From the NCBI GenBank assembly GCA_965287045.1, contig OZ336879.1, positions 66,712,001 to 66,776,000 of the forward strand: DNA of 64,000 nucleotides. The letters are read 5' to 3'. The stretch is from Carcharhinus amblyrhynchos. Its lineage: Eukaryota. The notes beneath the pieces were generated by a model. It was not told where the DNA came from. It saw only the letters and a program-made list of their open reading frames with translations, and did no database searches. The translations under genes and the position numbers were made by a program. Shown piece after piece: positions 21,011 to 43,975 of this stretch (positions within the stretch are counted from its first letter, which is position 1; each line of letters begins with the position of its first letter).

Positions 21011-23551
21011 CATTCTTACCAAAAAAATGGCAAAGTGTCAGTATCTGACGGAAAACCAATGTGTTTCTCTCCAGAGGACAGGCCAATTTTCTCTCAAGAT
21101 TCTCTTCTCCCCACTCCCCCATCAAAGCCAGCATTTCTCCCACCCCACCCCTCCCTGACGATCAAAGCCAACTTCCCCTCCCACAATCTGCACCCCCATC
21201 AAAGACAGCATTACCCTCTCTCTCTCCCAAATCCTCACCCAGAGGGAAGAGTGTCAGAGCCCTTCCCTCTGCCAAACAACCATCACCAGCATCCACACCA
21301 TTTTCACATCCACCCCCTCCACTGCCACAAATAAATGAGTCCTCCTCCATGAGGCAGTGTCGGGAATGACCATGTCCCTCTCCCCGGAGGCTATACTTAC
21401 CTTCGCTCCCATAGGAGGGGGGTGGTGGGGAGCCCCATTCTCCCACAACAGGTTCACATCTGGGTGAACCTATTATAAACCTCACCAATATGTGAAAATA
21501 CAGCGAGTGGGTTTTGAATTATATTGAAGTGCACTATTATAGGCTTGACCCTGATTATGTTGCTGGCAAGGAGTGGCGAAAATTAGTAATTGCTAACTCG
21601 CTGGCGAGATTCATGATTTCCAGGTTTTGTTGGATCTTGAGCAGCCACCCCCCCCCCCCCCCCCCCACCACCCCCACTGCCCCCTCACCAATCTTGTGGA
21701 GAGCACAGACTCAAGATCACCCCCAATATGTTACAAAATCAATGGAGATCAGTTACTCAAACTCCCTGATATTAAAAGAAAGAATTACACTACAGGATCT
21801 CACGTTTAAACCAAAACATTTACTGCACAAGAGTTAAGCAACACAACTACTTGACACTTTATTTCATGCGCACTAACGCTTTGAACTTGCAAACCTCAAT
21901 ACAACACTCCCTGTTCTACTTTTAATCCAATAGTCCCCCTAACCTTTAAAAGATTTTGAGAGTTCTTTAACTTTCCATGAGACCAAACCAAGGCCTGCCA
22001 CAACTTTCAGGAATTGGATTCTTTCAGTATTTCCACAACGCTATTAGATATGAGATTCTTGGGGTCCTTCCAGTAGCATCCAGCAAGACAAACCTTCCAA
22101 CTCCCCTTCAATACTTAAAGATTTTAAAAAGTTCTTTCAAAGGATGTGGGTGCAGCCTAATTGCCCTTAAGGCATTGGTGATTAGCTGCCTTTTTGAACC
22201 ACTGCAATCCACATGTTGAAAGCATCACCGCAGTACAGTTAGAAGAGGAGTTGGAGGATTTTGACCCAGCGATAGTGAAAGAATGGCAATTATAATTCCA
22301 AGTCAGAATGGTGGATGGCTTTAAGGGCAACATCCAGGTGTTGGTGTTCCCATGCACTTTGTTACGATCTGGATAGGGACCATTAACATTTAAAGATGCA
22401 GGTCTATCTAACTGTAACTTACTTTGGCTACCTGCTCTCAGGGAGCTGCAAACTGCACCCACCAGTCCCAAGCTTCAACTACCACTTGGGTGGCTTTACA
22501 TCCCTTTATATCGCCTCAACTGGTTTCAGTCAGCCCAGCAATTTTGGTTTCCAGATTCTAGATTCAGTTTTTCTGTCCTAAGAAACAGGAAGATTCAGTT
22601 TCCTTTCTATGTTTGCCTCTTCTATTTCCATTTTCAGCTTCTGATTTCAGTTAGGTCATGCATTGTTTAAGTTTCCCACCTGCTGCTCTACAATTCTATC
22701 TCTTTACTCTAACCTTGTAAGTGTAATAACCTCCTAGCTTATTTGCATTGCATTCCCCATTTTCTACAGTTGAAACTTTAATTCTTAAAATAAGAAGTTA
22801 TATTCTAAAACTAAAAGGTATATTCTAAAGCACTTGAACCATGAACTAGATATTTGCAACTATCTGCTGCCCTTGTCCTTCTAGGTGGTAGAGCCTGTGG
22901 GTTTGGAAGATGCTGTCAAAGGAACTTTGGTGAGTTTCTATAGTGCATATTGTGGATGGTACATACCGCGGCCACTATGCGTCGGTGGTGAATGGGGTGC
23001 CAGTCAAACGGGGTGCTTTGTCTTGGATGTTGAAGAGCTTCTTGAGTGTTGGTAGATTTGCAGTCATTCAGGCAAATGGAAAGTCACACTCTGAACTTGT
23101 GCCTTGTAGCTGCTGGACAGGCTTTGAGGAGTCAGGAGGTGAGTTACTCTGACCTACTCTTGTAGCCACAGTATTTATATGGCTGGTCCTGTTCAATTGC
23201 TGATCAATAGCAACCCCCAGGATGTTGACAGTGGGAGATTCAATGATGGCAATGTCATTGAATGTCAGGATAACATGGCTAGATTCTCTTCTGTTAGAGG
23301 TGATTATTACCTGGCCTTGTAGTGTGAATGTTAGTTGCCACTTGTCAGCTCAAGCCAGAATGTTGTCCAGGTCTTGCTGCACATGGATAGACTGCTTCAG
23401 AATCTGAGAGGTTGTGAATGGCACTGAAGATTGTACCGTCATCATCAAACATTGCCATTTCTAACCTAATGGGAAGGTCATTGATGAAGCACCTGAAGAT
23501 AGTTGGACCTAGGACACTACCCTGAGGAATTCCTGCAGTGATGTACTGAAA

Positions 23552-23675
23552 GAAGTCTCACAACACCAGGTTAAAGCCCAACAGGTTTATTTGGTAGCAC
23601 AAGCCACAAGCTTTCGGAGTGCTGCTCCTTCATCAGGTGAGTGGGAGTTCTGTCCAACACCGGCATCTTCACATC
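23552..23675 (-). mobile_element. Short Penelope-like insertion with target-site duplication
   Basis: gaagtctcacaacaccaggttaaag...tcatcaggtgagtggg plus an oppositely oriented end tccaacaccggcatc. Flanked by gtgatgtactgaaa (23538-23551) and gtgatggactgaaa (23676-23689). Confidence 0.8.
23603..23640 (-). ncRNA. Minimal hammerhead ribozyme motif
   Basis: - strand reads ucac-CUGAUGA-A-GGAG(cagca)CUCC-GAAA-GCU-U-GUGG: catalytic boxes, stem II, palindromic AGCU stem III and CAC/GUG stem I. The cleavage triplet is the unfavourable CUU. Confidence 0.65.
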
Positions 23676-24562
23676 GTGATGGACTGAAACAGAAATGATT
23701 GATCTCCAACCACCACGACTATCTTCCTACCTTCCATTGGGCATGACTCTAGTCAGTGGAGAGTCTTCCACTGATTCCCATTGATTCCAGTTTTGTTAGG
23801 GCTCTTGATGCCACACTCAGTCAAATGCTGCCCTGATGTCAAAGGCAGTCACTCTCACCTTGCCTCGGGAGTCCAGTTCTTCTGACAATGTTTGGACCCA
23901 GGCAGTAATGAGGTCAGTAGCTCAGTGACCCTGGTGAAACCCAAACTGAGCATCAGTGAGCAGGTTATTGCATTGTAAGTGCCTTTGGATAGCAGTATCA
24001 ATGACGCCTTCCATCACTTTGACAAATTGTTGGTAGTTTTTGTGGACAAGACAAAGCTGGGCAATTTTCTATGTTGCCATGTAGATGTCATACAATCCTG
24101 GAACAGCTTGGCTTGGAGCACAGCTAGCTCTGGAGGACAAGAGTTCAGTATTACTGCTGGAATGTTGTCAGTGCCCACAGCCATTGCGGTATTCAGTTCC
24201 TTCAGCTATTTCTTGATATCATGTGAAGTGAACTGAATTGGCTGAAAACTGATATCTGTGATTCTGGGGATCTCAGGAAGAGGCTGGTTCCCTAATTAAA
24301 GCTTGGGCATCACTGCAATCTGGCTTATTGACTTCAAATGGCAAAACATCCTTGGGTTTGTGATAGCCTTCTGCTATTGGCTCCAGCTGCTCTGCATCGC
24401 CTGGCAAATCATTTCTCTGCCTTCTGTAAACCGCTCAAGATCTAGAGCTCAGCCTGCTTATGCCTATGAAAAATCACCCAGATAAAACGATTACCAAAAA
24501 TAAAATGCTCTTTTAATCTGTCCCCAAGGCAATGAGGGATGCCTGGGATGCCGGAGATAGAA

Positions 24563-24852
24563 TCGTAGAATCCTACAGTGCAGAAGAAGGCCATTCAGCC
24601 TATTGAGTCTGCACCAACTACGATCCCACCTAGGCCCTATCCCCATAACCCCATGCATTTACCCTAGTTAGTCCCTCTGACATTAAGGTGCAATTTAGCA
24701 TTGCTGATCCACTTAACCTGCAAATCTTTGGATTGGGGGAGGAAACCGGAGCACCTGGAGGAAACTCACACAGAGAAGAACATGCAAACTCTACACAGTG
24801 ACCCAAACTGGAATCGAACTCAGGTCCACAACACTGTGAGGCAGCAGTGCCA
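24563..24852 (-). mobile_element. HE1/V-SINE-like element
   Basis: Reverse complement of head, core and CR1-type tail. Confidence 0.85.
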
Positions 24853-25065
24853 CCCACTAATTTTGGACCAATTGTTTTCAATCCTCAAACATCCCCCTTT
24901 GTTCTGAGAAACCATATGAATAATTTAAACTGAGCCGGCTGTAGACATCCTACCTCCACCAAAAAGCTGTTTAGGTTCCAGTATTTTGAACTATGGCCTT
25001 GATAAACAGACATAGACCACCTTTTTATTTGCAATTATTCCAGGTTTGTTTACCATATTCTCAAA

Positions 25066-25207
25066 CCAGGGACGAGGTTCTCCAACCGCGTGACCCCAAG
25101 ACCAGAAATTCCCGCCTGAGCTCAACAGACCTTTAAATGGCCTATTGAATTTTCTGTCTTAGCTGCTATGATTCCTACAGCAAGCAAGACAGGAGAATTT
25201 CAACCCA
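25066..25207 (+). mobile_element. Short Harbinger-type MITE
   Basis: Similar to 56900-57083 and, in reverse, to 59975-60435. Ends ggagaatttcaaccc. Confidence 0.6.
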
Positions 25208-26340
25208 GATGTTTTCATTGATCCTACATTTAAAAATTCCAATTCCTAAACCACAAGTTGTATTCCTGACAGGAATCATAAAATTCTAACACCAGCCCCT
25301 CACAAAAATGAAGGCCTATTGCCATCCTGATGTGTTTTAATTCCTACCATTTAAAATATAACAATTCCCAACATGCCACAATTTTAACAATCTTATTACA
25401 TGATATCCACAGAGCAATCTCCCCATTGTCTCCAAGTCAGCCCATATTGATAACATTTCGTTGTTAAATCAGTAACCGGGAGCCACAATCAAATATAGAT
25501 ATACAATATATCTTCTTGTGGTGTTCTGTAAAAATTTTCATTTTCATATCACAACAATTATAATTCAAAGTCTTGTGTAAGTAGGGACTCCTCACTGTTA
25601 ACAATGTATGAATTTTCAAGCTCAATTTTTGAATCAGCCTGCCCAGATTTCATCTTCTGATCTTTATTTTCCTCCATCTTCGCAGCATTGCCGTTGGCCG
25701 GAATTTTCCAGCCATTCATTCCACAGGGATTCCCTGATCCCACTGCAGTGAATGGAGATTTCACTGAGTGCCAGATTCTCTATCCTTGTTTACAGCGGCA
25801 GCGGGGGCGTGTATGGCCGGAGATTTCTGGCACTTGTTTACATCCAGAAATAATGTCCCGATCAATATTACCATTAAACCCTCTTCTTTCCAGTTAATTG
25901 CAGACATATCTTTATTTCTAAATCCATTCCCCAGATTCAAATATTTTGGATTTTCTTTGTGAAATATCAAGTTCAAACTTGTTTTTTTTGTATCGACAGA
26001 GCTTCCTTAGCCACTTTCGAAATTTGGTTCAGATGCTTTTTACGTGCATGCAGAAAGCCTTGATATTTTTGTTTGGTTTGGTCTTTGGACAGTTTATAAC
26101 CCCTTAGCATTTTTCTTGTTGTCAGTCAAAATGAATCTTGCTTAATTCTTTTTGAGTGGTAGCTTCTTCCTGCTGGGGCTTCATTTTCCATTCCAACATT
26201 TTGAGTCTTCCATGCAACTCATGAATAACACCATCCCAATTACTTTTGGGGTGTTGTAATGTGATTTTTAATTCTTCCATTTGCCTGGATTCCCGCTGCT
26301 GAATCCAGTGTTATTTCAGCAGTGGTAGGTATTAGTGGTA

Positions 26341-26670
26341 GGGGTGGCACAGTGGTTAGCGCTGCCGCCTCACTGCACCAGGGAACCGGGTTTGATTTCT
26401 GGTTTGAATTACTGCCTGTGTGGAGTTTGCACATTCTCCTCATGTCTGCGTGGGTTTCCTCCGGGTGTTCTGGTTTCCCCTCACAGTCCAGAGATGTGCG
26501 GGTTAAATGGATTGGCCGTGCTAAATTGCCCCTTAATACCAGAAGGACTAACTCCATGCATTTACCAGAAGGTAAATGCATGGATTTACGGGGATAGGGC
26601 CTGGAAGGGATTGTGGTTGATGCAGACTCGATGGGCCAAATGGCCTCCTTCTGCGCTGTAGGATTCTGTG
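26341..26670 (+). mobile_element. HE1/V-SINE-like element
   Basis: Full head, core and tail. Confidence 0.87.
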
Positions 26671-26979
26671 AATTTCCATTGATTGATGCCAATGATCAAA
26701 TACTATTTCTTTCTCCAGAGCAATTTTTTATGAAAGTCTGATTTTGTCTTTTCCCCAGATTCTGAAATGTTAAGCTATAAGCCTGTGGTGTTAGCTGATA
26801 CACATTAAGAACCACAGTCTTAACACTTTCATAATAAGGTGACTCTCTATCTGAAAGACTTGAGTGGACATCCAAAGCTTTTCCTATTAAATGCTTTGTA
26901 CAAGAATGTTCCATGTCTCTTGTGGCCAAGTTAATTTTGCAGCAATTTCCTCAGAGGAGACAAAACATCTTTGCAAATA

Positions 26980-27490
26980 TTGTAGATGCTGCCAATCTGA
27001 AGTTAAAACCCAAAATGCGGGAAATATTCAGCAGGCTGGGTGGTACCATAAAATGTGCCACCCTTTCTGTGAAGAGTTACTGTTTCAGGTTGATGATTTT
27101 CTATCAGAACAGAAGGTAGATAGAAATGTAAGTGTTTTAAGATAATAAAAGAAGGAAGGGACAAGAAGAACAAAAGGGAGGAGTGGAGTGGAGGGTGGAG
27201 GGCAGGAGAGATTAGCTAACAAAGGAATTCATGATGCAAAACCCAAAGGGAAGGTATTGGGCATAATAAAGAGACAGAAGTTGTGTCCAGCTGAGGCGAG
27301 AATGGCTACGTAGCAGGCATCTGAATGCAACATGGGAAGATTAAGAAAGAAACAAGCCAGCAAAAAACACCAAAAAAAAAGTACCTAGGACAAGCTGGAG
27401 GCAGAGGTTAAGATCTGAAATTGTGGTGAATTCAGTATTGAACGCAGAAGTCCATAGAGTGCCAAGACAAAAAGTGCAGTGTTGTCACTT
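26980..27490 (-). mobile_element. Penelope-like fragment with degenerate hammerhead-like motif
   Basis: - strand ttCTGATAGAaaatcatcaacctGAAAc at about 27080-27110. End motif aaaatgcgggaaatattcagcagg is shared with 13830-13870. Confidence 0.5.
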
Positions 27491-28036
27491 TCAATACCTT
27501 TCAGTGCCTTCCTTACTGAGTGTGGGCACTGTGCAGTTATTTCTCACCAAATAAAAATCAGGAGTACAATTCAAATCTTCCTCCAATCTTCCAGTTATTC
27601 CCTGGTTATGTAAGCAACACTTTTCCCTACCCAGTTCTATTTTCCTCATCTCTTTCTCCCTTTGAAACTCTTTGGGCAGAATCTTGGGGCCATTCATACC
27701 AAGTTCTCCATCCTCACCTGCAGTGGCAGCAAGGCGTGAATGGCCGGAAAGATCGTTCCCTTTATTCATTTCTTTTTCTTCCATATGGAATTCAAATTCA
27801 GGTCCTTGCATTTCCGTTTCTTTTGCTCTCTCTTTTTTCCTTTTTTCTCTCTTTGAAGCTGTTTTCATTTCTCTCACTTTTTCTGTTTCAAACTGTTTCA
27901 TTTATAATTGACTCACAGTGGTTTTATGCTGTGCATTCTCTGGATTACCTCTTCATCCTTACGGTTCAGATGTTAAACCAATACCTCAACTATTTCAGCT
28001 TTTGTAATGTCTACTTTTAACTTTGTTCCCAGCTTG

Positions 28037-29332
28037 GGGCAACACGGTGGCACAATGGTTAGCACTGCTGCTTCACAGCACTAGGGACCTCAATTCAATT
28101 CCTGGCTTGGATTGCTGTGTGTGCAAAGTTTGCACATTCTCCCCAAATCTGCATGGGTTTCCTCTGGGTGCTCTGGTTTCCTCCCACAGTCCAAAGATTT
28201 GATTTATCATTGCCATATGTATTAACATATAGTGAAAAGTATTGTTTCTTGCACTCTATACAGACAAAACATACCATTCATAGAGAGTGCAGAATGTAGT
28301 GTTATAGTCATAGCTAGAGTGTAAAGAAAGATCAACTTAATGCAAGGTAGGTCCATTCAAGAGTCTGACAGCAGCAGGGAAGAAGCTGTTCTTGAGTTGG
28401 TTGATACATGACCTCAAGACGTTTGTATCTTTTTCCCGAAGGAAGAAGGTGGAAGAGAGAATGTTTGGGGTGCACAGAGTCCTTAATTATGCTGGCTGCT
28501 TTGCCAAGGCAGCGGGAAGTGTAGACAGAGTCAATGGATGGGTGGTCGGTTTGCGTGATGGATTGTGGTCTTGGGCAGAGCAGGAGCCATGCCAAGCTGT
28601 GGTACAACCAGAAAGGATGCTTTCCATGGTGCATCTGTAAAAACTGATGAGAATCATAGCTGACATGCCAAATTTCCTTAGTCTTCTGAGAAAATAGAAG
28701 TGTTTGTGGGCTCTCTTAACTATAGTGTTGGCATGGGAGGACCAGGACAGGTTGTTGGTGATCTGGACACCTAAAAACTTGAAGCTCTCGACACTTTCTA
28801 CTTCATCCTCGTTGATGTAGATAGGGGCATGTTTTCCTTTGCGCTTCCTGAAGTTGATGAAAATCTTCATTTTGTTGACATTGAGGAAGAGATTATTGTT
28901 GTTCACCAGACTCTCTATTTAATTCCTGAACTCTGTCTCATCATTGTTTGAGATCTGACCCACTACAGTGGTGTCGTCAGCAAACTTGAAAATCGAATTG
29001 GAGGGGAATTTGACCACACAGCCATAGATGTATAAGGAGTTTAATAGGAGGCTGAGAACATAGCCTTATGGGCACCATTGTTGCAGATGATCGTGGAGGA
29101 GGTGTTGTTGTCTATTCTTACTGACTGTGGTCTGTGAGTTAGGAAGTTTGAGATCCAGTCGCAAAAGGAAGTGCCGAGACCCAAAAGGATGCGCAGGTTA
29201 GGTCAATTAGCCATGCTAAATTCTCCCTCATGTACCCAAACAGGTGTCGGAGTGTGGCGACAAGGGGATTTTCACAGTAACTTCATTGCAGTGTTAATGT
29301 AAGCCTACTTGTGACACTAATAAATAAACTTA
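28037..29332 (+). mobile_element. V-SINE with alternative 3' tail, split by a Rex/Babar LINE
   Basis: Head and core 28037-28197 end cagtccaaagat. The SINE resumes at about 29184 (ggatgcgcaggttagg) and ends gtaagcctacttgtgacactaataaataaactt. Confidence 0.8.
28199..29183 (-). mobile_element. Rex1/Babar-clade LINE 3' fragment
   Basis: ORF 28487..28906 NNLFLNVNKMK...LGVQITNNLSWS...YFLRRLRKFGMS. gattt repeat tail at the left end. Confidence 0.87.
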
Positions 29333-30814
29333 AGCTTTCTGCCTACTCCTTTCAAATTAACTGTTGTTAATTGTTGCAGATTACTCAGGGATAATTTCTC
29401 TGCTTATTTTGACTTTTCTGTAAATGCACTAAAAACCACTGTGCAATCTTTTTCACTTAAGCTTTAGAAAATCCCAGAATACCCGTCTCGGTCTGTAAAT
29501 TCAAAATCCCAAATGAGCCCTTAGTTGTTATGATCTTGGTAAAGATTATTAGCTATCAGAAAGGAGTTTAAACTCCCAATCATTGACTAAAAGAACTCAC
29601 TACAAGATTTCATATTTTAAACCTCATTTGTACTGTACAAGAGTTAAGCTAAGCAAGTACTACCAACAACACTAAATTCTGTTAACACATATACTTAAAA
29701 AAAACTCAACAGAACATTCCCTGTTCTACTTTTATTTCAACCTGATCTCCCTTATACTTTAAAGGATCTTGAGGCTTCTTTGCATCTCCTGAGACCAAAC
29801 CAAAGTGTGTCACAGCTCTCAGGAATTCATATTGATTCTTAGTGCTCTCACTTTTTTCCAAGTTATAAGACTTCTTCAGGTCCTTCCAATAGCATTCAGC
29901 TAAATGCGACCCCACCAACTCTCTTTCAACACTTCACGATTGTAGATACCCCAACTCAAGCGGGTGCCTTCTTGTATTTTGGCTTCGTGATATCAAATCG
30001 GAAGGCACCCTTGGTTTTTGATAGCCCTCTGCTACTGGTTCCAGCTGAGTCATGGCTCCCGGCAAATGCTCTCTCTGTCAATTGTTCCTTCCCCGTCTCC
30101 TCCAAACTGCTGTAAACTCAGCCTTCAACTGCCTGTTCAGTGAAAAATCACTCAGATAAAATCTTAACTAAAACAAAACTCGCTGCAATCCATCCTCCCG
30201 GCACTGAGACACATCATGGGATGTTGAAGATCATCAGGATGTAAGCTAATTATCTCCAATTCCCAAACCTCCCTATTTGATCTGGGAAACCATATAAATA
30301 ATTTAAACCTTTTATCAAGATAACTGTAGATATCCTGATTCTACCAAGAAGCTGAGAGAGAAAAACCCTCATTTACCTACTAACCTTTACACAAGTGCAC
30401 ATCTGCATAGATTTAACAGCAAATTAAGTTGCTGCTATTCAATATAATTTTTGATGTTGAGACTCCAAAATGAACCTTAGCACAAAACCCCTGCAGCACA
30501 AACAGCGCTCTTTTCTCAGTTTAATGCATCACCCGAAGTGCAGCATGTCCAACAATGCAACATGTCCTCAGTACTGCACAGAGGGCTGAATTTTCAGTCC
30601 CCATCTAGAATGGAAACCACAGAAAGTTGAGGCCAAAATTAGCATGCCAGCCAGCATGTTGGTTTTTGTGGCTATGCTTCCAGTGCCAGTGATGTTCAGC
30701 AATCTGAGGGGAGGCTGGCACAACAATTCCAGACACTCCCTGATTAAAGCCAATTGGAGTGGTTAACCAATTCATTGTGACACGTAAAGGGAGAAGTTGA
30801 AACTTTTACAGGCA

Positions 30815-31043
30815 CATTTGATTTGATTTGATTTATTATTATCACATGTATCAGTGTACAATGAAAAACTTTGTTTCTTGCGTGTTGTACAGACAAAGCA
30901 TACCAGTCATAGAGCATATAGGGGAGAAGGAAAGGAGAGGGTGCAGAATGTAGTGTTACAGTCACAGCTAAGGTGTGGAGAAAGATCAACTTAACATATG
31001 TTGGATCTATTCAAATGTCTGATGGCAGCAGGGAAGGAGCTGT
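30815..31043 (-). mobile_element. Rex/Babar 3' tail fragment
   Basis: atttgatttgatttgatttattattatcacatgta... matches 28199-28390. Confidence 0.8.
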
Positions 31044-31289
31044 TACATGAGCTGTCTGGGGCTGAATGGAGGTGGGTACACCATGGTGAACCAGTCATGC
31101 CCATTCCAGGGAAATACCTCAGCCTCTAAAAGGGTCATCAGCTCAGAGCAGGCCAAGTTTTTGGAAAACATGCCCTTGGCGCAGCATAGTTGATCGGGAG
31201 TGCAGGCAGTCAGTGTGAGGACGTGACATGGAGATACTGATAGCCAAGTTCTGCACACATAAGGAAGGCCTCAACGGGATCTTGGGTTC

Positions 31290-31602
31290 ATGTCACACTA
31301 CGTGTAATTCCCACCATCTGGCCTGGGCTCGCAAAATCTTACAAATTGTCCTGGCTTGAGACAATTCACATCTCTTTAACCTGTAATTATCCCTCTCTCC
31401 ACTCACATTATCTGTATCTGTAAAGACTTGATTACCTTTAAAGACTCGCATTCCAACCATTATCTTGCAATGCTGCCTTTGTCTATATATGCCGTGTTTG
31501 TGAAACCTACCTCTCCACTCACCTGAAGAAGGGGCAGCGCTCCAAAAGCTCATGATTCCAAATAAACCTGTTGGACTTTAACCTGTTGTGAGACATCTTA
31601 AT
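31290..31602 (+). mobile_element. Penelope-like terminal repeat fragment with mutated hammerhead
   Basis: cac-CTGAAGA-A-GGGGC(agc)GCTCC-AAAA-GCTC at 31520-31551 (GAAA changed to AAAA), followed by aaataaacctgttggactttaacctg. Confidence 0.75.
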
Positions 31603-31859
31603 GTGAGGACAGTGCAGGAGGTCAACCCGCTCCTACGATCCTGGGGGCAGAAAAAGCAGGGGGGAAGACAACCAAGGAGAACTGGGGGCAACTAGCCAAG
31701 CACAAGGAAGGCTGCATTGTCAAACAGTGTAAAACTCTCTGACTTTGGGCCCAGTGGTGATGAGCAGCAACACCCTTCCCCATAAAGACAGAACACTGAG
31801 CAGCAGGAGGGCAGAGGAAAGGAACGAGGAGGATGAAGTAAATGGAGGCCATATGGAGA

Positions 31860-31990
31860 CTTCGTCAGGTGGGTGGGAGAAATGGAGTTCTCCCACCCAC
31901 CTGACGAAGGGACAGCCTGTTCCGAAAGTTTGTGGCATTTGCTACAAATAAACCTGTTGGACTTTAAGCTTGTGTTGTGAGACTTCTTGC
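31860..31990 (+). mobile_element. Short Penelope-like insertion with a perfect 22 bp hairpin
   Basis: Arms 31860-31881 and 31888-31909 are exact reverse complements. Followed by aaataaacctgttggactttaa...gtgttgtgagacttctt. Confidence 0.8.
31897..31935 (+). ncRNA. Minimal hammerhead ribozyme motif
   Basis: CCAC-CUGACGA-A-GGGACA(gcc)UGUUCC-GAAA-GUU-U-GUGG. Core boxes and stems I and II are intact; stem III and the cleavage triplet are altered. Confidence 0.6.
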
Positions 31991-32647
31991 CATCCAGACA
32001 CCCAGCGACAGGCCTGTGAGATCTATCAACAGAAAAGGCTTCCATTCCCTTAATGTCCAACCAATCTATGATTACAGCAAGAGCTTGCTGTGTGTGGATG
32101 CTTGCTTTCCTGTTGGTTGCCATGACTACTTCATCCTCTGCCAGCCCAAACTGCAAGAGCTCTTCTTTCACTACACTCTGCCAAATGTATGGATCGGTCC
32201 TCGGGGACCAAGAAACAAGACCCACCTGATTCAGTATTGTTCTGTAAGTAAGGAAATATCCCCATCATTACCCAATCTGACCTACATGTGACTCCAGACC
32301 CACAGCAATTGGACTGACTCTTAATGGCCCTCTGCAATAGCCTAGCAAGCCAATCAGTTCAACGGAAATTGTGATGGACAAGAAATCACATGCCAAGAAA
32401 GAGCAAAGAAAAGAGAGGCTGCCGCACCTACATTATTGCGGTTATAGCCCTGCTGCACAGATGGCCTCTCAGTCAGAGGAACCAAGGAGGCTGAGGATGA
32501 TGAGGATGCTAATGAGGGATGACACCTTCATTCACCCCTGTGGCATCCTCAGCTCTTGGCAGGCATTGTGAATGCTTGGAAGATGACAGCAGCTGGGGCA
32601 CAGCTGGCATCCACTCCAAATATCTCTGTGGATTCGGTGTGCAGTTT

Positions 32648-32978
32648 TGATTTGACTTATTATTGTCACATGTATTGGTAATCAGTGAAAAATATTATTT
32701 CTTGCATGTAACGAAGACAAAACTTACCAAATATAGAGTACATAGTGGAAAGGGAAAAGGAAAGGGTGCAAAATATTGTATTAGAGGTAGGGTGAAGAGA
32801 AAGATCATCTTAATACATGAAAGTAACGTTGGAAGGCCTGGTGGCAGCTGAGAAGAAGCTGTTCTTGAGTTGGTTGGTATGTGTTTTCAGACTTTTGTAT
32901 CTTTTTCCCGATGAAAGAAGATGGAAAAGGGTATATCCAGAGTGCATGGGATCCTTGATTATGAGGCTGCTTTCCCGA
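32648..32978 (-). mobile_element. Rex/Babar 3' fragment
   Basis: agaagaagctgttcttgagttggttggta matches about 28380-28407. Confidence 0.8.
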
Positions 32979-35633
32979 GACATCATCCACTCACAGTGAA
33001 GCCACAGATGACTTTCCCGCAGCTTGGCTACCCTATCAATGGAGGAGTTAATAAGCTGCTAGCCCTGAGCCATGGTGCCACACATGAGCTAAATGGACTC
33101 CTCCATTCTCTGGCCTTGTCTTCTCATTGCCTCAGGGAATCCTGTCATGCAGAAACACATCTGCTGCTGCTGCTTTAGGTACAGCTTCCTTCCCAGTGAC
33201 TCCTGGGGTCCTCAAACGAGGCACTTATCTGAGGAGTGCTTCGGGCATCTCCTTCTGCACACTAATATGTGTGTGCCATTTACCCAGTGCCACTTTATTT
33301 AAATGCAACATGAGGACCTTGCGAGGTAAGACAGTGTGCATTGGTAGACGCTGCACTTGTAAAGTGATGGTGTTCCTTCACCACCTCTCTGCTTCACTGG
33401 GGCAGCTGGGGGAGGGGAAGAAAGTTCCTTCTACTGGACACGTCCACCTGTAGGAGACACAAAGAGATATGACCAGAATTAACTGAGGAGAGTGGAAGCT
33501 ATGGTAGTGTTTTTGGATGGGGTGGAATGCATTACATCCAATAAAAGACACATTCTCCTGTGTAATCACCATCATCACACGTCTTACCAGGGTTGACAAT
33601 ATTCACTCCGAATCCTGGATATCTCCAGATTTATCTCCTTCATTGGAATAATGTGGTGGTACGAATAGTACCCTTTCTCCCATCTATATCCTCTGGCATT
33701 AAGAGCCCATTACACCTGTAAGGATAGAAGAGAGTGAGATAAGGCATTGTTGTCCTCATTGATCAATGTGCCCCTACTCATTAAGAACTTTGTCTATCAG
33801 TGCCGGCAGATCCTAAGCAGCAGTATGGTTCTGAACCATTCTGAGGGGCTAATAGGTGCCCTGGGAATGTGTATTCCTTTGATGTTCAGGAGCACCCCGA
33901 GGCATCTCAGCTACCGTATGTGCTAGAGGTAAATAGGTTAGGGGTTACATTTATCCTACCAGAGTGTATCAGATCATTGAAGCTTTTCCAACACTATATT
34001 CAGATTCTCCTCACTACAATCTGGTCAGTCACTAAGGCTGCCACTTCTACACGCACCTTCTCAGTCTGGGTGGCTGGCCTCTACTGAACACCCTCTGGGG
34101 AGAGGACCTCCCTCCTCTCCCTAATCAAATTCAGCATGACATTCAGGTCTGCATCTGAGAACCCAGGCATAGCTTTACCTGCATGCCAGGCATCCAGCTT
34201 TCCTGAGACATCAGATTTGATTCCAATCCTGTCTAAAACATTGAGAAATTCTGCAGCTTTCTTCCTTCACTAACACCATAGCCTCAGTAATGGCTGTCAT
34301 GGTGAATTTGGACCAGATATGCAAACAATCTGTTCCCATCCCACAGCCTCAAATGGATGCATCCACATATCAATTAAGGGGCTACCCCTATGAAAACTGT
34401 GACCTCAATCTGCTTTTCCCCAGCAAGTTGGGTTGGAACCCGGGAATAGCCCCGATCCCCCCCATTCCCTGCCACCAACGTGAAAATTCAGCTCAAAGCG
34501 CCAGCCTAGATGACGAACTCAAGTCTGTAGGGTGGAGTTGCAACCCTCAACCCATTAACGTAGGGACCAGAATGTGGCCATGGGTCAAGGCTGACACCTT
34601 GGTGAAGTACCAGGGGGTTAGCAACACCCATCAAACAGCACTCCAGTATAATAAGAAGGAGAAAGTCAAGTGAAGTGGAGAAAAAATGCAGAAGGAGCTG
34701 AAACAGCAACATTTTTGTAAGAAACTCTTGAATGTTTCAAAATTACATTAACACATTATAGTCACTATTTAAAAAATGAAGATTTTATTTACAACGTGCA
34801 TTAAATCCAATACAGTTTCAAATTCCCACAAATGGCAGCATACCACTAATTACCTTGAAAAAGTAACTTTTCCCCTTTAGAAAGAAGTTACTGTCTGTGC
34901 TGTCAATTTCTATTAACTAATGAACCTATATGTTGCGCAGTACTGCGCACACATTCTAATATTTACTGACCCAAAACCAATTCTAGCATTATTTTATCTG
35001 CTTTATCTGGATGAACCCTTCCAGGCACAAGAGGTGTTAATTTGTCCATGGTTTACCCATGGATCCTTCCAGCGGGCACTCAAGAGAACACCTTCCCACC
35101 CCCCCAGCCACCACATCTTTGGACAGTCATCTTCAAAGTGTTGTGATAAGGTTGAGAATTAACTGAACCTACCATTAAAAAAAAAAGAGGGGATTAGAAA
35201 CTTAGGAAATCTCAAATTGAACATAACGGCAGTAGCTCCTTCATAGTTAGAATTCTTAGAGAAACAGACTGTCACCTAATGCAGTGAATGCAGACTTGGT
35301 GGAACCATGCAGAAAATAAATCAATTTTTTTTAACATTCAGTTGGAGTGGAGGATAGACGCTTGGTGTCTCAGTAGGAGGGAATTGAACATGGTCTGATT
35401 ACATCCTGCACATGAACACAGTACTGTGTAAGCATGGATGAAGCAAATGGGCGCCTTCTGTTCTTATGAAGCATGGTGCCTACCTGCAATTTAGCTTTTA
35501 GCCCTGGTTTGTAAAGAAAGGAATGGCCACTTGAAGTAATCCTTGTGGAGGGATTGATTTCATTGTGGTACTGAACATTGACTTAAAGCACCATTATCCT
35601 CTTGAATTTGACAAACATCTTTCATTTTTGAGA

Positions 35634-35865
35634 ACAGCATGGTGGGCACAGTGGTTAGCACTGCTGTCTCACAGTGGCAGAGACCCAGAGTCGATTCTGG
35701 CATTGGGTCTGTGTGGAGTTCACATGTTCTCCCTGTGTCTGCGTGGGCTTTCTCCAGGTGCTCTGATTTCCTCCCACACTCCAAAGATGAGTGGGTTAGG
35801 TTGATTGGTCATACTAAATTGCCCCTTAGTGTCCCAAGATGTGTAGTTTAAGGGGATTAACGGGG
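35634..35865 (+). mobile_element. HE1/V-SINE-like element, 3' truncated
   Basis: Head and core present; tail missing after ggggattaacgggg. Confidence 0.83.
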
Positions 35866-36714
35866 CGTACTGCTGCCCAACCCCCACCCATAAAATATCA
35901 GTCCCAAATTGATCAACTGCAAGCACTGTCGCCCTGCTGCCATGATGCGCTCCAAGCGGCCTTAATGAGGTGAGGGCCAGAATTCTGCCCCTCAAATGGA
36001 AGAAGCTCCACCCTCAAAAGCTGAGAGCCAGTCTGATTGGCTGGCAGCTAAAGCAGTCTCTGCAGTGCTGGAACTCAGTATAGGGCTTGCTGGAAGAAGA
36101 CACAGCCAGCATTCTGCGGCCCCTCCCCTCCCAGTGGGATAGTATATCCCACCAAACTGAATGCAGGTTTGAGTGGTCATGGTCTGCAGACTTGGGTAAG
36201 TCAGCGGCTTTAAACAGGGAGAGACGAGAGAGCCTAGAGAAATGTGGGGAAGTGGGGGAAAGGAGGGGTTGTTTGGCAGCAGATTTTGAAGACCAGAACG
36301 GTTAGTACAAAGAGGGGTTTAACATCATGGGAGAGTGTCCCCAGTGTAGAGTGGACACTTCATGAAGGATGCAAACAACCCCTTCCTTCCCACCTTTTCA
36401 CCAAAGGTATCCGCCAGCCAGTGTGTTCTGACCGCAGAGGTGGATTGTTGACCTCAAGAGGGCAATAATTAGTCACATAAGGCATTCAATAGGCCTAATA
36501 GAAGATGGCTTAGTGTGTGTCATACTCAATCCTTCCCCCTGTGTAATGAGAATCAAATTGGGGGTAGACAGGAAAGTGGTGAGCTTAGCCACTTGATCTA
36601 TTCTATTTTACATGCCCCACTGCTGGGGGGACGCAGGGGGCTGGGGGGATGGAGGTGGAGTGCGGGGAGATAGGGTTTGTAAAATCCAACCCAATATATA
36701 TTTTCCACTTTTTA

Positions 36715-37660
36715 ACTTCTTAATTAATTCATGGAATATGGACACCATTGGCTAAGCTAACATTTATTTCTCATCCCTAAGTCCCCTGGGGAAGTCATCT
36801 TCATGAACTCCAACACTCCATGTAGGTGCACCCACAGTGCTGTTAGTAAGAGAGTTGCAGGATTTTGAAGGAGCAGCAATATTATCCCAAATCAAGACCT
36901 TGTGTAAATTGAAGGGGAACCCATGGGTGCTTGTGCTCCCAAATGTCCTTGTTCTTCTGTGTGGTAATGGTCACAGGATTGGAAGCTGCTGTCGAGGAAA
37001 CCTTGAGTTGCTGCAGTGCATCGTGTAGATGGTGGAAATGGCAACAACCACAGTGAATGGCGATGGAAGGAACAAATGTTTAAGGTGGTGAATGGGGTGC
37101 TAATGAAACTTGCCTCTTTGTTCTGGATGGTTCAAACCTGTTAAATGTTGGGGAAATCAGGAGATGCTTTAGAATACTTCGCCTCTAACCTACTCTCATA
37201 ACTGTGGTATTTTGTTGCTGGTACAGTAAAGTTTCTGGTTAATCACAGTCTGCACACAACATATTGATGGAAGGGAATTCAACATTGGTAATGCTATTGA
37301 ATATCAAGGGAAGGTGGTTAGAAGCTCTGTTGTTAGAGATGATCATTGCTCATGTAGTGATTTGAGGCAACTGAGTGGCTTACTAGGCCATTTCAAAAGA
37401 TAGTTCAGAGTCAACTACTTTGCTGTTTGTCTGGAGTCACATAGAGGCCAGACTGGTGAATTGTGACAGATTCCCTTCCATAAGGGACACGATTGAATCA
37501 GATGTGAGATGTAGATTTTGTGGTCACCATTACTAATACTTATTTCTTATTCCGGATTTATTTAATTCACCAAATTTCAATTCGGCAGCTGATATGGTAG
37601 GGTTTGTGTCAATGCCTCTGGATCATTTATCCAAGTCTCTAGGTCCTTGTCCAGTAACTC
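36715..37660 (-). mobile_element. L2-type LINE 3' fragment plus L2-tailed SINE remnant
   Basis: Colinear with 48805-49450 and 11180-11480. Confidence 0.65.
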
Positions 37661-38356
37661 ACATTAACCAGCAGTATTATAAACATGCAACCTCTCAACT
37701 CCACTCACCAGTATTTTCCGATCTTTGTTATTCCTAATCTTCACTCATACTGATACCAACCATATGTCACAACTCCCATTAAGATACACAGGATTTTTCT
37801 GCACAAAGTATCTCATTGAAATGGTGTTCACATTTAGTTAAGTACCTGAAATATCCAATGTACAGTTGACTGCATTGCTAAACAAAAAAACAACTCAATT
37901 AGGTTCTACTAACACATCAAAGTGCTGATTTTACAAAATTCCATTCCTGCTTTTGAGCCTGGGCTGTTGGGAGTGTTTCTCGTAAATTTAAGCAAGCTTC
38001 CCGTATGCATTGATGGTGAATGTGAATCCCCACCAGAATTACAATTACGCAAAATGATTCCTTAAATTACAACGGTACAACAGGATTTCCGCTCAATGAG
38101 CTTAATACGTCACATACCAAAAAAAATCTTGATTCATTACAGCATCAGTCAACCCCGTGTTTACGGTCTGTGGTGTAGGTGTGTGCAATACATTTGCCTT
38201 ACGTTGGAATAATTGAAATATTGGAACAACAGAACTGACATTATCACCTTTCTGACTGACCCTGCAGTGTAATATATCTGAGTGGCAATGAAACTGCTGC
38301 TGCTTGCATGCCTGTACATTAAATATTTGACCTTCCACTATAATGCTCATTAAACT

Positions 38357-39170
38357 AGAACATAGAACATAGAAAAACTACAGCATAATACAGGTCCTTC
38401 GGCCCAAAAAGTTGTGCTGATCATGTCCCTACCTTAGGGATTACTAGGCTTACTTATAGCCCTCTACCTTAGTAAGTTTCACTTATCTAAAAGTCTCTTA
38501 AAAGACCCGATCGAATCCATCTCCACCACCATTGCCGGCAGCCCATTCCACACACCCCCCATTCTGACTGAAAAACTTACCTCTGACATCTCCTCTGTAC
38601 TTACTCCCCAGCACCTTAAACCTGTGTCATCTTGTGGCAACCTTTCAGCCCTGGGAAAAAGCCTCTGACAATCCACTTGATCAACACCTCTGAACATCTT
38701 ATACACCTCTATCAGGTCACCCCTCATCCTTCGTCTCTCCAAGGAGAAAAGGCCGAGCTCCCTCAACCTATCCTCATAAGGCATGCTCCCCAATCCAGGC
38801 AACATCCTTATAAATCTCCTCTGCACCCTTTCTATGGCTTCCATATCCTTCCTGTAATGAGGCGACCAGAACTGAGCACAGTACTCCAAATGGGGTCTGA
38901 CCAGGGTCCTATATAGCTGCAACATTATCTCTCGACTCCTAAACTCAATTCCTTGATTGATGAAGGCCCATACATCATACGCCTCCTTAACCACAGCTTC
39001 AACTTGCACAGCTGCTTTAAGTGTCCTATGAACTCAGATCCCAAGACCCTTCTGATCTTCCACACTGCCAAGAGTCCTACCATTAATAGTATATTCTGCC
39101 ATTCTATCTGACCTGCCAAAATGAACCATTTCACACTTATCTGGGTTGAACTCCATCTACCACTTCTCCG
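38357..39170 (-). mobile_element. Relatively young CR1 (HER1-like) LINE 3' fragment
   Basis: ORF 38479..39009 (LYRTLVRPHLEYCAQFWSPHYRKD...LFSLERRRMRGDLIEVYK). (agaacat)n tail. Confidence 0.92.
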
Positions 39171-39921
39171 CGTCCTAACTACATTCATAGTCTAATTTGC
39201 TGGCAATACAGTAGGTTCAAGGAGGGCATTATCAGGTACGTTAAAAGTACAGATGCTGGTTGCATCTGTTGCTTTGCCACTTCTGAAGGGGGAAGAAATG
39301 GCAGCAACAGGACTGTAATATTTATTGCTAGAGCATTGGAGCTGATTGTTGCAAATACTGCAAAGATGTGTGATCTTTATGGGACTGAGGGCCCCACCTC
39401 CAGTGAAGAGCAATGCCAGATTGGCCTGGATGGGAGTTTCAGAGAGTCAGTGCTTTCTTCATTTGTGCCTTAAACCTGGGAGTGGATGAGGGAGAATGTT
39501 GTTGCTCCCTGGAAGGTCAGCAGCCCCACTCCTCTGACTGTACTGTGTATACAGTACTACACTTCAAAAGCATTTCACTGGGAATGAAGTATTTGTGGGT
39601 GTCTTTAGATTGTGAGAAGTGCTACAAAAATTAAAGTCGCTCTTTTTATATGCCCAAGTAAGCACTGCTTTGAAATACATAGTCTGAGTAACTACTGTCC
39701 AACACCTCATTCAGAGAAAGACACAGATATCTGAGTCCTCCCCATCTCCCTTCCTCCTTTTGCCTCGGGACATTTTAGATCTGAGAGGCATGTGTAAAGT
39801 GGGGGAGTTAGGCCCTTGGAGACTTATGCATACAAGAGTGGGGTGAGGGGGGGAGGGGTATGTTCAGGCCTTCGAAAGGTGGATGTGCATCAGAGTGGTG
39901 GGAGGACCTCCGAGAGGCAAG

Positions 39922-39985
39922 GATGAGAGAGAGGGTGAGTGTGTGTGTGAGAGAGAGGAGTGAGTGTGTGAGAGAGATGTGCATG
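39922..39985. repeat. Compound (GA)n/(GT)n microsatellite
   Basis: gagagagagggtgagtgtgtgtgtgagagagaggagtgagtgtgtgagagagatgtg. Confidence 0.8.
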
Positions 39986-39994
39986 TGTTTGTGC

Positions 39995-40287
39995 TTGTGG
40001 TTCACACTGCTGCCTTACAGTGCCAGGGACCCAGGTTTGATTCCTGGCTTGGATGACTGGGTTGAGTTTGCACATTTTCCCCGTGTCTATGTGGGTTTCC
40101 TGCAGGTGAGCCAGTTTCCTCCCACAGTCCAAAAATGTGTGGGTTAGGTTGATTGGCCACGATAAATTGCTCCTTAGAGTTAGGGGGAATGTCAGGGGAG
40201 GACTAGAAGAGCAAATATGTGAGGTTATGGGGATAGGTCCAAGGTGGGATTGTTGTCACATTGATGGGCCGAAGGGCCTCCTGCACT
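39995..40287 (+). mobile_element. HE1/V-SINE-like element
   Basis: cactgctgccttacagtgccagggacccagg...gatgggccgaagggcctcctgcact. Confidence 0.8.
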
Positions 40288-40474
40288 TTTTTTGTGTGTG
40301 TTGGGCAGGGGAGGGGGTGGTGAGGAATGTGTAAGGTGTGTATGTGTGTATTTGTTTTTTTTAAGGGGTATTGGGAGGATGGTTTGCAACAGGTTAATAT
40401 GAGCAGGCCATGTTGCTGGCGAATACATTTGTGACTGCGTGTGAATCCCTAATTCTGAATATTTGCATATATTT

Positions 40475-41310
40475 TCAAGTTTACTGATGACACCACCGAA
40501 GTGAGTTGGATCTCAAACAATGACGAGACAGAGTACAGGAATAAGATAGAGAATCTGATGAGCTGATGCGGCAACAATAATCTCACCCTCAATGTCAACA
40601 AAACGAAAGAGATTGTTATCGACGTTAGGAAGCATAAAGGAGAACATGCCCCTGTCTACATCAGTGGGGGTGAAATAGAAAGGGCCAAGAACTTCAAATT
40701 TTTAGGTGTCCAGATCAGCAACAACCTGTCCTGATCCCCCCATGCCAACACTATAGTTAAGAAAACCCACCAACGCCTCGACTTTCTAAGAAGACTAAGG
40801 AAATTTGACATGTCAGCTATGACTCTCACCAACTTTTACAGAAGCACCATAGAAAGCATTCTTTCTGGTTGTATCACAGCTTGGTATGGCTCCTGCTCTG
40901 CCCAAGTCTGCAAGGTACTACAAAAGGTCATGAATGTAGCCCAATCAATCACGTAAACCAGCCTCCCATCCATTGACTCTATCTATACTTCCCGCTGCCT
41001 TGGCAAGGCAGCCAGCATAATTAAGGACCCCACGCACCCCGGATATTCTCTCTTCCACCTTCTTCCATTGGAAAAAGAATACAAAAGTCTGAGGTCACGT
41101 ACCTACAGACTCAAGAACAGCTTCTTCCCTGCAGCTGGCAGACATTTGAATGGACTTATCTTGCATTAAGTTGATCTTTCTCTGGCTCTGACTGTAACAC
41201 TGCATTCCACACTCTCTCCTTTATGAATGATATACTTTGTATAGCGTGCAAGAAACAATAGTTTTCATTGTATGCTAATATATATGACAATAATAAATCA
41301 AAATCAAAAA
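40475..41310 (+). mobile_element. Rex1/Babar-clade LINE 3' fragment
   Basis: Begins ttcaagtttactgatgacaccacc (F[A/T]DDT RT motif), matches 28199-29000 in reverse, ends aataaatcaaaatcaaa. Confidence 0.88.
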
Positions 41311-41974
41311 ATAAATAGAGCTAGAAAGGACTAGTATACAATTGGTTTCTGCGTTCATGCCTATTTTGCAGCAAAAAGAAGTGTCACCATTATGTGAGCA
41401 CTCAGGGTTCCCCGATGATCTATTGAGATTACCCGGGTTCCATGGCTCAAAGGGTTTGGGAACCCTGCTGTAACGTATCAAGATGTTTCTTTCAGTATGG
41501 GGCATATTAAGGTTGTTGAGTGGAAGTCCTGTTGCACCTTTGCAGTTTAAGGAATCATTTTGCATAGTTGTACTCCTGATGGGGATTCACATTCAACATG
41601 AATACATTTTGGAAACTTGTTTAAATTTACAAGAAGCACTTCCAACAGCCCAGGCTCAATGTCAGGAATGCAATTTTGTAAAATCAGCACTTTGATGTAT
41701 TGGTAGAGCCTAATTGAGTTGCTCCTTTGTTTGGCAGAGTATTTGTTACCTATGCAGACTACCATACAGAGGACATTTCAGGTACTTAACTAAATGTGTA
41801 CACTATTTCAATGAGATACTTTGTACAGAAAAGTCTTGTGTGTTTTAATGGGAATTGTGATGTATGGTTGATATCAGGAGAGATTAGGAATAACAAAGAT
41901 TGGAAAACATTGGTGGGTGTAGTTGATAGGCCTTCAAATGGTTATACTGATGGACAAAATATTAAATAAGAACA

Positions 41975-43975
41975 ATTTAAATCTGTAACAAAGGCAACAT
42001 AAGAATCATGGGGGACTTTAATCTTCATATAGACTGAACAAATCAAATTGACAAAGGCAGTCCGGATGCGATAAGTTTGTAGAATGTTTGCCCAGCAATT
42101 TCCTGGAACACAAGGCTGTACAATCAATTAGAGACACAACTATTTTAGATCTGGTACTCTGCAATGACAGTAAGAAGTCTCACAACACCAGGTTAAAGTC
42201 CAATAGGTTTATTTGGTAACACAAGCTCTGACTGTAACACTGTATTCCACACTCTCTCCTTTATGAATGATATACTTTGACAGTAAATCACTGTGCAGCC
42301 ACCTCTGAAGGCTAGCTTCCAAAGTGCTGCTCCTTCATCAGGTAAGTCTGCTTCATCAGGTGACTGATGAAGGGGTAGCGCTCTGAAAGCTAGTGATTGT
42401 GCTACCAAATAAACCTGTTGGACTTTAACGTGGTGTTGTGAGTCTTCTTACTGTGTTTACCCCAGTCCGACACCGGCATCTCCACATCATTCTGCAATGA
42501 GGCAGGGTTAATCAGAAATCTAAGTAAAAGATCCTCTGGGCAAAAGTAATCATAATATGGTTGAATTCCATTATAAGTCTGAGAATATACTTGGGTCCAA
42601 AACAAGAATCTTAAACTTAAAGCAATTTACATAGGTGTAGGGAAACAGTTGGCTATGGTTTTTTGGTTCAGTAAACGAAGAAGTATGGCATTAAGCAAGA
42701 AGTGAGAAACTTTTAAGGAAGTGCTAGCGAGAAAGAGAGAGGTTGGTGAGAAGGGGACATTTACCATGTTGTTAAAATAAGGGATAGCTCATTTAAGACA
42801 TGTGATGGATTTTGTTGCCCCCACCCAGAGTACATTCAGTGTCCTAAATACCGTCAGTGTTTTCAATATGGGGAGCACTGATACATCAGCTGAGAGGGGT
42901 GGTAGGTGATAATAAGCAGGAGTTTCCCTTTCCCATGTTTGACCTGATGAAAGGAGACATCATGGGGTCCAGTGTCAATGTGAAGACTCTGAGGATCACT
43001 TTCTGTAGACAGTAAATCACTGTGCAGCCACCTCAGATGGGTCTGTCCTGCCAATAGGATAGGACACACCTAGGAATGGTGAGGAAGGAATCTGTAATAT
43101 TGGCTGTAATGTATCAAAGGAGGGAGACAAAATCAGGGAACTCTGGACCAGTTCACATGACATCAGTTATCAGAAAAATGTTGGAATATGTTATTAAAGA
43201 AGTCTTAACAATTCACTTTGAAAACCACACTGTGATCAGACAAAGTCAACTTGATGTTCTGAGAGAAGTTTTTTGAGTTTTCTAATTAATAAGGTAGATA
43301 AAGGGGAGACAATAGATGTATACTTGGATTTCCAAAAGCCATTCAAAAAGTGACTCATACATAAGGTGCACAAGATAAGGCCTCATGGCATTGGGTTAAT
43401 ACATTAGCATGCATGGAGGATTGCTGAATGGACAGGGAGCAGAGTTGGAATAAATGGGACATTTTCAAGTTGGCAGGCTGTAATCAGTGGAGTGCATAAG
43501 GATCAGTGGTGGGACTCCAGCTAATTACCATCTATGTGAATGACTCAGAATAATGTAGGAAATGTATACTATGAGAGAACACCAAGAGTCTGCAAGGAGA
43601 TTTTGATTGGTTAAGTGAGTGGGCAACGAGGTGGTAGGTGGATTATAATGACAGGGTGGCATGAAGTATTAAGAATACCAAGCAGAACATTTTCAAAAAG
43701 ACATGAAACTTCTAAATGTTGATATTAAGAGAGAGACTTGGGTATACTCATATAATATAGATATGTAGATACAGCAAACAGTTTGGGAGGCAGATGGACT
43801 ACTGGCCTTTATTGCAAGGGCATTGGAGCATTTCATTCTTTATTCCCACACTACAGAGTACAGAATTGGCTGTACATTTTTTAGGAATTCTTGCTGCAAT
43901 TGTACAGGGATTTGGTGTGGTCACAGCCAGAAAACTGTTTGCATTTTGAACTTCATATCTATGAGTTGGAGGCGG
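41975..43975 (+). mobile_element. Old fragmented CR1 LINE with Penelope and L2 fragments inside
   Basis: Endonuclease-like IMGDFNL (atcatgggggactttaatctt) near 42005. RT-like YLDFQK and LYRDLV fragments at 43320-43970. Confidence 0.7.
42168..42490. mobile_element. Palindromic Penelope-like insertion with perfect 10 bp TSD and two opposed hammerhead-type motifs
   Basis: TSD tctgcaatga at 42158-42167 and 42491-42500. Left arm cagtaagaagtctcacaacaccagg is inverted relative to right arm ggtgttgtgagtcttcttactg. + strand CTGATGA-A-GGGGT(agc)GCTCT-GAAA-GCTA-GTG at 42364-42395. Confidence 0.85.

Follow-up and report, generated by a model that had tools for sequence, protein, structure and literature searches.

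What are the four small, related insertions that carry minimal hammerhead ribozymes in an intron of the glutamate receptor gene GRIA4 of the shark Carcharhinus amblyrhynchos, and could their ribozymes still cut the host transcript? The insertions, referred to here as copies A to D, lie in a window of 64,000 nt (OZ336879.1, positions 66,712,001–66,776,000, forward strand), which is the whole stretch of DNA analyzed. An earlier note had ascribed them to Penelope-like elements (PLEs) and had set two origins side by side, i.e., extreme 5′ truncation and a retrozyme-like, non-autonomous family. Copies A to D are very probably dead-on-arrival, 5′-truncated remnants of an elasmobranch Penelope-like retrotransposon of high copy number; their ribozymes are predicted to leave the host RNA uncut. 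Truncation is supported because of the anatomy of the insertions, the published structure of PLEs, and the longer, family-wide body of copy B, whereas the retrozyme-like branch of the proposal found no support.

Locus and anatomy of the insertions

Shark GluA4 residues 243 to 296 map by tblastn to 4135–4296, and residue 297 onward maps to 51583 onward, both on the + strand. Since the two exons carry consecutive residues in the same orientation, the interval between them is a GRIA4 intron (Table 1), and all four insertions are located within it, as had been proposed. The downstream exon is 96% identical to chimaera GluA4 and at most 87% identical to bony-fish and frog GluA4 among the matches listed.

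The four copies match one another at 77–94% identity over 44–100 nt, and a shared 22-mer occurs five times in the window (three exact occurrences and two with one mismatch) vs. none in 100 shuffles; the fifth occurrence is the inverted arm of copy D. The mutual relationship of the four insertions is thus confirmed, as are the approximate positions first given for A, C, and D, whereas copy B starts at approximately 31224–31235 and not at 31290. This start is indicated by a jump in family depth in the bin 31216–31254 and by the target-site duplication (TSD) of copy B itself, a 9-bp repeat that brackets 31223–31601; the copy is 378 bp long, not 313 bp. TSDs of variable length (14, 9, and 10 bp) flank A, B, and D. 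Those of A (one mismatch) and D (exact) had been recognized before, and that of B is added here. Among 300 random pairs, an exact match of at least 9 bp was found once (1/300) and one of 14 bp with one mismatch never (0/300), in windows smaller than those of the real search, so that this background understates chance.

As the earlier description held, copies A, C, and D are partly inverted. Their segments are joined head to head and have varied 5′ ends; A, C, and the direct part of D (127 bp) each comprise approximately 124–136 bp of an end module. Two discrete 3′ ends, approximately 40 nt apart, are found among the copies, and a tail of 37–41 nt occurs at one end only; D has it whole and A in part, whereas B, C, and the inverted arms lack it. 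The first base of the direct segment of D is also that of the catalytic core, and the segment extends 37–41 nt past the end of the inverted arms and of B and C. The short fold-back pieces of C (31860) and D (42351) both start at approximately the first base of stem II; self-priming may favor this point. Copy A lies in a repeat relic (23472–24020), and the other copy of this relic in the window (49474–50165) has a different repeat of approximately 275 bp (49558–49833) inserted within a few bases of the position equivalent to that of copy A.

Table 1. Coordinates in the window of the GRIA4 exons and intron and of the parts of copies A to D
Feature	Position	Strand	Remarks
GRIA4 exon, upstream side of host intron	4135..4296	+	tblastn with shark/ray GluA4, 94–100% identity; GT directly 3′
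GRIA4 intron, 47.3 kb, host of all four insertions	4297..51582	+	flanking exons encode consecutive residues 296/297
GRIA4 exon, downstream side of host intron	51583..51750	+	51586–51750: 100% identity with five GluA4 clusters of sharks/rays
Copy A, left TSD, 14 bp	23538..23551		1 mismatch to right copy
Copy A, inverted terminal-repeat segment, from tail-less end	23552..23653	-	~100 nt of end module
Copy A, minimal hammerhead, antisense to GRIA4	23604..23640	-	intact core
Copy A, direct part, final 22–24 nt of tail	23652..23675	+	92% identical to D 42465–42488; ~2 shared bases at joint with inverted part
Copy A, right TSD	23676..23689
Copy B, left TSD, 9 bp	31214..31222		exact
Copy B, final ~25 codons and stop of reading frame	31228..31307	+	putative end of PLE open reading frame, from translation; lacks one base near 31275
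Copy B, 3′ untranslated region and end of terminal repeat	31308..31601	+	tail-less
Copy B, hammerhead, sense	31519..31555	+	G12A; first stem I pair broken
Copy B, right TSD	31602..31610
Copy C, short inverted arm	31860..31881	-	22-bp perfect fold-back over catalytic core, -44.4 kcal/mol
Copy C, direct segment, tail-less	31888..31988	+	hammerhead 31897–31935; no clear TSD
Copy D, left TSD, 10 bp	42158..42167		exact
Copy D, long inverted arm, reaching from tail-less end 2 nt into stem I	42168..42343	-	holds broken fifth hammerhead (A13G)
Insert in inverted arm of copy D	42228..42311	+	two nearby donors, 54/55 and 27/27 identity; ends beside scissile bond position 42312/42313
Donor 1 of copy D insert	41185..41239	+	98%; part of dispersed repeat relic, other window copies 74–85%
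Donor 2 of copy D insert	43008..43034	+	exact; no other match in window
Copy D, second short inverted piece	42351..42363	-	at head-to-head junction
Copy D, direct segment	42364..42490	+	hammerhead without 5′ stem I strand (42364–42396), then 37–41 nt tail (42450/42454–42490)
Copy D, right TSD	42491..42500

Comparison with published Penelope-like elements

The insertion units of endonuclease-containing (EN+) PLEs (Penelope/Poseidon and Neptune; PMC8557442 and PMC3846280) comprise a pseudo-long terminal repeat (pLTR), an inverted 5′-truncated copy, a tail of 30–40 bp, and a variable TSD. According to PMC8557442, the insertions are heavily truncated on the 5′ side, adjoin a truncated copy in inverted orientation, and carry a 30–40 bp tail at one end. 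A rotifer example with an inverted pLTR, a 31-bp tail, and a 9–10 bp TSD is given in PMC3846280, according to which palindromes are common at inverted junctions and host DNA can be captured by PLEs. The insertions in the GRIA4 intron share with these units a head-to-head inverted copy on the 5′ side (an adjacent inverted, 5′-truncated copy is found in A, C, and D), a one-end tail of 37–41 nt, TSDs of 9–14 bp, palindromes at the inverted junction, heavy 5′ truncation, and host DNA captured in one copy. They differ from EN+ PLE units in that no open reading frame (ORF) extends beyond approximately 25 codons and in that the direct part of copy A is only the final 22–24 nt of the tail, nearly the whole insertion being inverted.

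A minimal type I hammerhead likewise lies in the terminal repeat, as judged against the description in PMC4209133. In that paper, minimal hammerheads in which segment 15.2–16.2 is palindromic and stem II is preceded by an extra base mark metazoan PLE repeats; most of them are single motifs that come from truncated copies. The motifs studied here have the same CUGANGA box, a single extra base before stem II, a G-C closing pair, an AGCU palindrome in place of stem III, and a 4-bp stem I, and they too are mostly single motifs. Stem II is 4–6 bp long here vs. 7–8 bp in the Schistosoma families (PMC4209133), and, unlike the metazoan hammerheads of the same paper, the present copies carry inactivating changes or sit buried in hairpins. 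Sharks are not among the vertebrates named for PLE hammerheads in the available part of PMC4209133.

The insertion reaction has been studied in the Poseidon element of Anolis carolinensis (PAc; PMC11167929): both strands were nicked and extended in vitro, and the tail corresponds to the stretch between two internal starts of the reverse transcriptase (RT). The hammerhead was dispensable for insertion in vitro (PMC11167929). As in PAc, two 3′ ends are set apart by the tail, the structures fit two-strand priming, and the hammerhead lies a short way upstream of the RT starts. Unlike PAc, in which the ORF starts at stem II, the direct segment of D has a stop in all three frames between the core and the end of the tail, and thus any start codon would lie elsewhere.

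By analogy with these systems, target-primed reverse transcription from both nicked strands is the likely mechanism. The GIY-YIG domain of the element would nick both target strands, and the RT would start at the tail end with one nicked strand as primer and at the tail-less site with the other. Both cDNAs would stop early and would then be joined, which would give the order TSD-inverted-direct-tail-TSD seen in A and D; B and C would be single tail-less copies, C with a self-primed fold-back. After insertion, the copies would drift neutrally. The hammerhead would have been carried along because it is located 57–98 nt from the 3′ ends. As such truncated copies, the insertions have little significance of their own: very many other dead copies exist, and their anatomy is already published. 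They nevertheless illustrate neatly the model in which PLEs prime from two starts on two strands, and so large a family could serve as a natural data set on what the PLE hammerhead does.

Abundance, body, and age of the family

Four public contig sets (X1, X5, X6, and X8) were aligned to 31060–32200, which covers copies B and C; one is from the best-matching sample, possibly the source of the window itself, and three are from other organisms. All four runs contained contigs matching this interval, at 31,302–60,365 per run. In X1, the summed depth was approximately 12 on the unique flanks, 1.6e5–2.4e6 across all of B, and 4e4–2.7e6 across C; summed contig depth is not a copy number and depends on likeness to the reference copy. 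These counts and depths show a very abundant family whose members include the whole body of B up to the reading frame. Loose contig ends at 31275 carry, in all four runs, the base that is missing from copy B, and the frame of the family therefore has the base that copy B lost. Loose ends behind the 3′ end of C (31988) begin with the tail seen in D. Family contigs run into two different tails (31589 and 31988), and the sequences upstream of the hammerhead are not alike in A, B, and C, so that there are at least two subfamilies.

The left junction of C is bridged in all four runs. The right junction of B is bridged by at least 31 letters in three runs and by 30 in X5, and its left junction is clearly bridged in X6 and at the limit in X1 and X8, X5 having no cover there. 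In the three other organisms, the bridging contigs differ from the window by 1.6–5%, which indicates that B and C predate the separation of these organisms.

The shortness of three of the copies bears on a different explanation, in which A, C, and D represent a short non-autonomous element (retrozyme- or SINE-like, i.e., resembling a short interspersed nuclear element) that was derived from a PLE end module and moved in trans, B being a truncated autonomous copy. A, C, and D consist of just 124–136 bp of the module, and the 5′ ends are bunched: among the seven hammerhead-bearing segments, which represent four events, three end 0–4 nt before the core and three approximately 12–18 nt before it. 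Contig depth is highest over the final 80 nt of B and C, and vertebrate retrozymes derive from PLE repeats and are often monomers (bioRxiv 2026.07.22.740005). On the other hand, a rise in depth toward the 3′ end is equally expected from truncation and is subject to the likeness to the reference copy noted above. The copies have no common body or fixed 5′ end, and the tail lies outside the repeat module, which argues for a PLE-type template. Neither tandem units nor two same-strand cores in one insertion were found: none of the four tandem-repeat rows in 23000–43500 overlaps an insertion, and no insertion contains two sense cores. We consider this explanation unlikely.

The insertions do resemble non-LTR animal retrozymes (PMC7229834 and bioRxiv 2026.07.22.740005; LTR, long terminal repeat) in being non-coding and in carrying a type I hammerhead with kinship to PLE repeats, and monomers are possible in both. 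Unlike retrozymes, which are head-to-tail tandem units with a complete hammerhead each (PMC7229834), they show no tandem arrangement, inverted repeats, and variable lengths. Retrozyme identity was rejected on the lack of a head-to-tail tandem of complete hammerhead units; as nothing in them is tandem, the insertions are not retrozymes.

Hammerhead motifs and the GRIA4 transcript

A strict hammerhead pattern matched the window twice, in A and D, vs. 0.19 matches expected. The motif CUGANGA...GAAA-GCU had been attributed to every copy; it is found in A and D, whereas the corresponding stretch reads AAAA in B and GAAA-GUU in C. A simple stem II descriptor was too strict on the bulge length and matched only D and one unrelated site. 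When the entire window was compared with Rfam at E ≤ 1, a single chance match (RsmY, E 0.3) and no hammerhead family were returned. In addition to the four motifs first described, the inverted arm of copy D holds a fifth, broken and antisense one.

Stem II was said to differ between copies with its pairing kept. Pairing is indeed kept in 92% of cells over the five motifs, mostly via G-U pairs of the kind that plain transitions yield. Changes on both sides are limited to one of the five pairs of stem II (in copy C) and to two of the nine pairs of the stems overall (five rows). The covariation score was reached by 163 of 500 shuffles and is not significant, although five motifs are too few to refute selection in the active family; strong stem II covariation is not supported by this score.

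A defect had also been claimed for every copy. In A, the core, the 4-bp stem II, the 4-bp stem I, and the AGCU palindrome are intact, and the only flaw is an open fifth stem II pair. In C, the core is intact and the palindrome has a private C-to-T change (T at 31929, with C in approximately 96% of the family depth). The core of C sits inside its -44.4 kcal/mol hairpin, and the predicted cost of opening it and forming stem II is 15.4 kcal/mol. In copy D, stem I is without its 5′ strand, and a predicted 23.6 kcal/mol would be needed to expose the core. Both cores are predicted to be paired (P(unpaired) of 0.001–0.009), and the inverted arms of C and D are transcribed ahead of them. G12 of the hammerhead is the general base, and it is this residue that is changed to A in copy B.

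Residual co-transcriptional cleavage of the intron had been thought conceivable, three motifs (B, C, and D) being on the GRIA4 sense strand and two of them approximately 380 nt apart. Both observations stand (the measured distance from B to C is 378 nt), and cleavage gains no support from the sequence or the folding predictions. None of the four copies combines a location on the transcribed strand with an intact core that is predicted to be free to form stems I–III. Cleavage is unlikely because B carries G12A, the cores of C and D are locked in predicted hairpins, and the intact core of A is antisense.

It is nonetheless conceivable that one or more sense hammerheads, e.g., a cross-dimer of B and C, still cut the GRIA4 pre-mRNA and alter its splicing or level. 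The strands of stem III of B and C could cross-pair with three predicted Watson-Crick pairs and one wobble, both copies are present in related organisms, and intronic hammerheads are conserved in amniotes (PMC6765202). The excess of sense cores (3/4, p = 0.625) is no enrichment. In such a dimer, however, one site would contain the mutant core of B, and at the other, where the core of C would cut B, stem I has only 2 of 5 pairs and a mismatch adjoining the cut; the B/C dimer was rejected on these grounds. Even intact minimal PLE hammerheads show poor cleavage as dimers and none as monomers (PMC4209133), the anole hammerhead cleaves only with its protein (PMC11167929), and eight of nine frog dimers tested did not cleave (bioRxiv 2026.07.22.740005). 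Together with the predicted costs of exposing C and D, these points make cutting of the GRIA4 pre-mRNA highly improbable.

Autonomous partner and points against truncation

The reading frame in copy B is probably the end of the PLE endonuclease ORF, as judged by its position and by its 25-codon peptide, which presumably resembles the end of a GIY-YIG domain; no database match confirmed this resemblance. The peptide gave no candidate in a set of 5.8 billion proteins, longer and near lengths included (the query is short and the blank is weak), and, short as it is, matched 0 Pfam families and 0 PDB entries. The unchanged 30-residue frame, also a short query, had 0 matches at E ≤ 0.001 among 1.84 billion representatives, and the two matches of the peptide in the ESM Atlas (0.76) are a lead of no value. 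DNA patterns of the family had 0 matches in metagenome contigs and 0 in viral contigs; two matches in prokaryote genomes were rejected as 20–21 nt chance matches with nothing else in common. Peptide and DNA motifs of the family were found 0 times in the available supplements of PMC8557442 and PMC11167929, and no paper devoted to this shark family was found in a literature check to which Repbase and Dfam were external.

Several of these results weigh against truncated PLE copies as the explanation. The peptide of B remained without a database match in five kinds of search, and a full-length element with RT and GIY-YIG domains was not found in the protein, metagenome, viral, and prokaryote searches. 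Copy C has no clear TSD at its ends, and among the 15 joints listed of 316, none skips B or C to give an empty site. The bunched 5′ ends hint at truncation that is not random. The folding results, moreover, are nearest-neighbor predictions without proteins, and the anole hammerhead cleaves only with its protein (PMC11167929). The copies would be notable only if junctions across the genome were over-represented at the scissile bond or if the GRIA4 pre-mRNA were really cleaved.

Insert in copy D

The inverted arm of copy D is split, 1–3 nt or less from the scissile bond, by an insert of approximately 85 nt that is absent from the first description. It consists of 55 nt from 41185–41239 (54 identical) and 27 nt from 43008–43034 (exact and unique), both in the same orientation. 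The donors lie 1.0 kb upstream and 0.5 kb downstream, and the joints have microhomologies of 1–3 nt. Templated break repair is a mechanism that yields such inserts. The insert differs from its donors at 1 of 82 bases and the two arms of D, despite its exact TSD, from each other at 9 of 85 (Fisher p = 0.018); the insert therefore appears to postdate D, which suggests that it came from later templated break repair.

The position of the insert invites another explanation, in which it arose during insertion: on reaching the end of an RNA that the ribozyme had cut, the RT would have gone on to copy two stretches of DNA close by and would then have returned to RNA, on the upstream product of cleavage. 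Beyond the insert, the sequence of the arm continues from the position of the scissile bond (42312/42313), with approximately 2 nt missing relative to copy A; a window of approximately 5 nt in the 92-nt arm would be hit by chance approximately 1 in 20 times (a post hoc estimate). The capture of host DNA by PLEs is also on record (PMC3846280). On the other hand, the divergence makes the insert look younger than D, the microhomologies fit later templated repair too, and the junction at the scissile bond is a single case. An origin during insertion appears quite improbable. The stem II of the inverted arm resembles that of A and the stem II of the direct arm that of B, and the two arms may stem from two template RNAs; if so, the age argument for the insert falls.

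Carried further, copy D would be a fossil of self-cleavage of a PLE hammerhead in vivo, in which the RT copied the downstream product, hopped to host DNA, and resumed on the upstream product, the arms coming from two RNAs. We regard this with considerable doubt. If true, the junctions in the thousands of copies in sharks would reveal the sites and the frequency of ribozyme cleavage in the course of retrotransposition, a point left open in vitro.

Other repeats in the window

A SINE-like family of approximately 300 bp occurs at more than 10 places (2538–60395), within introns. Relics resembling long interspersed nuclear elements are also found in introns, e.g., at 12848–13467, 28198–28993, 38522–38953, 40471–41302, and 45429–45863, and one relic frame in the window matched the Pfam family ALKBH8_N. 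A tandem repeat at 5925–6110 has a 69-bp unit in approximately 2.7 copies with 97% identity. Finally, a pair of inverted repeats (16535–16758 and 17224–17449; 226 bp, 90% identity, approximately 470 bp apart) is possibly a DNA transposon or a miniature inverted-repeat transposable element.

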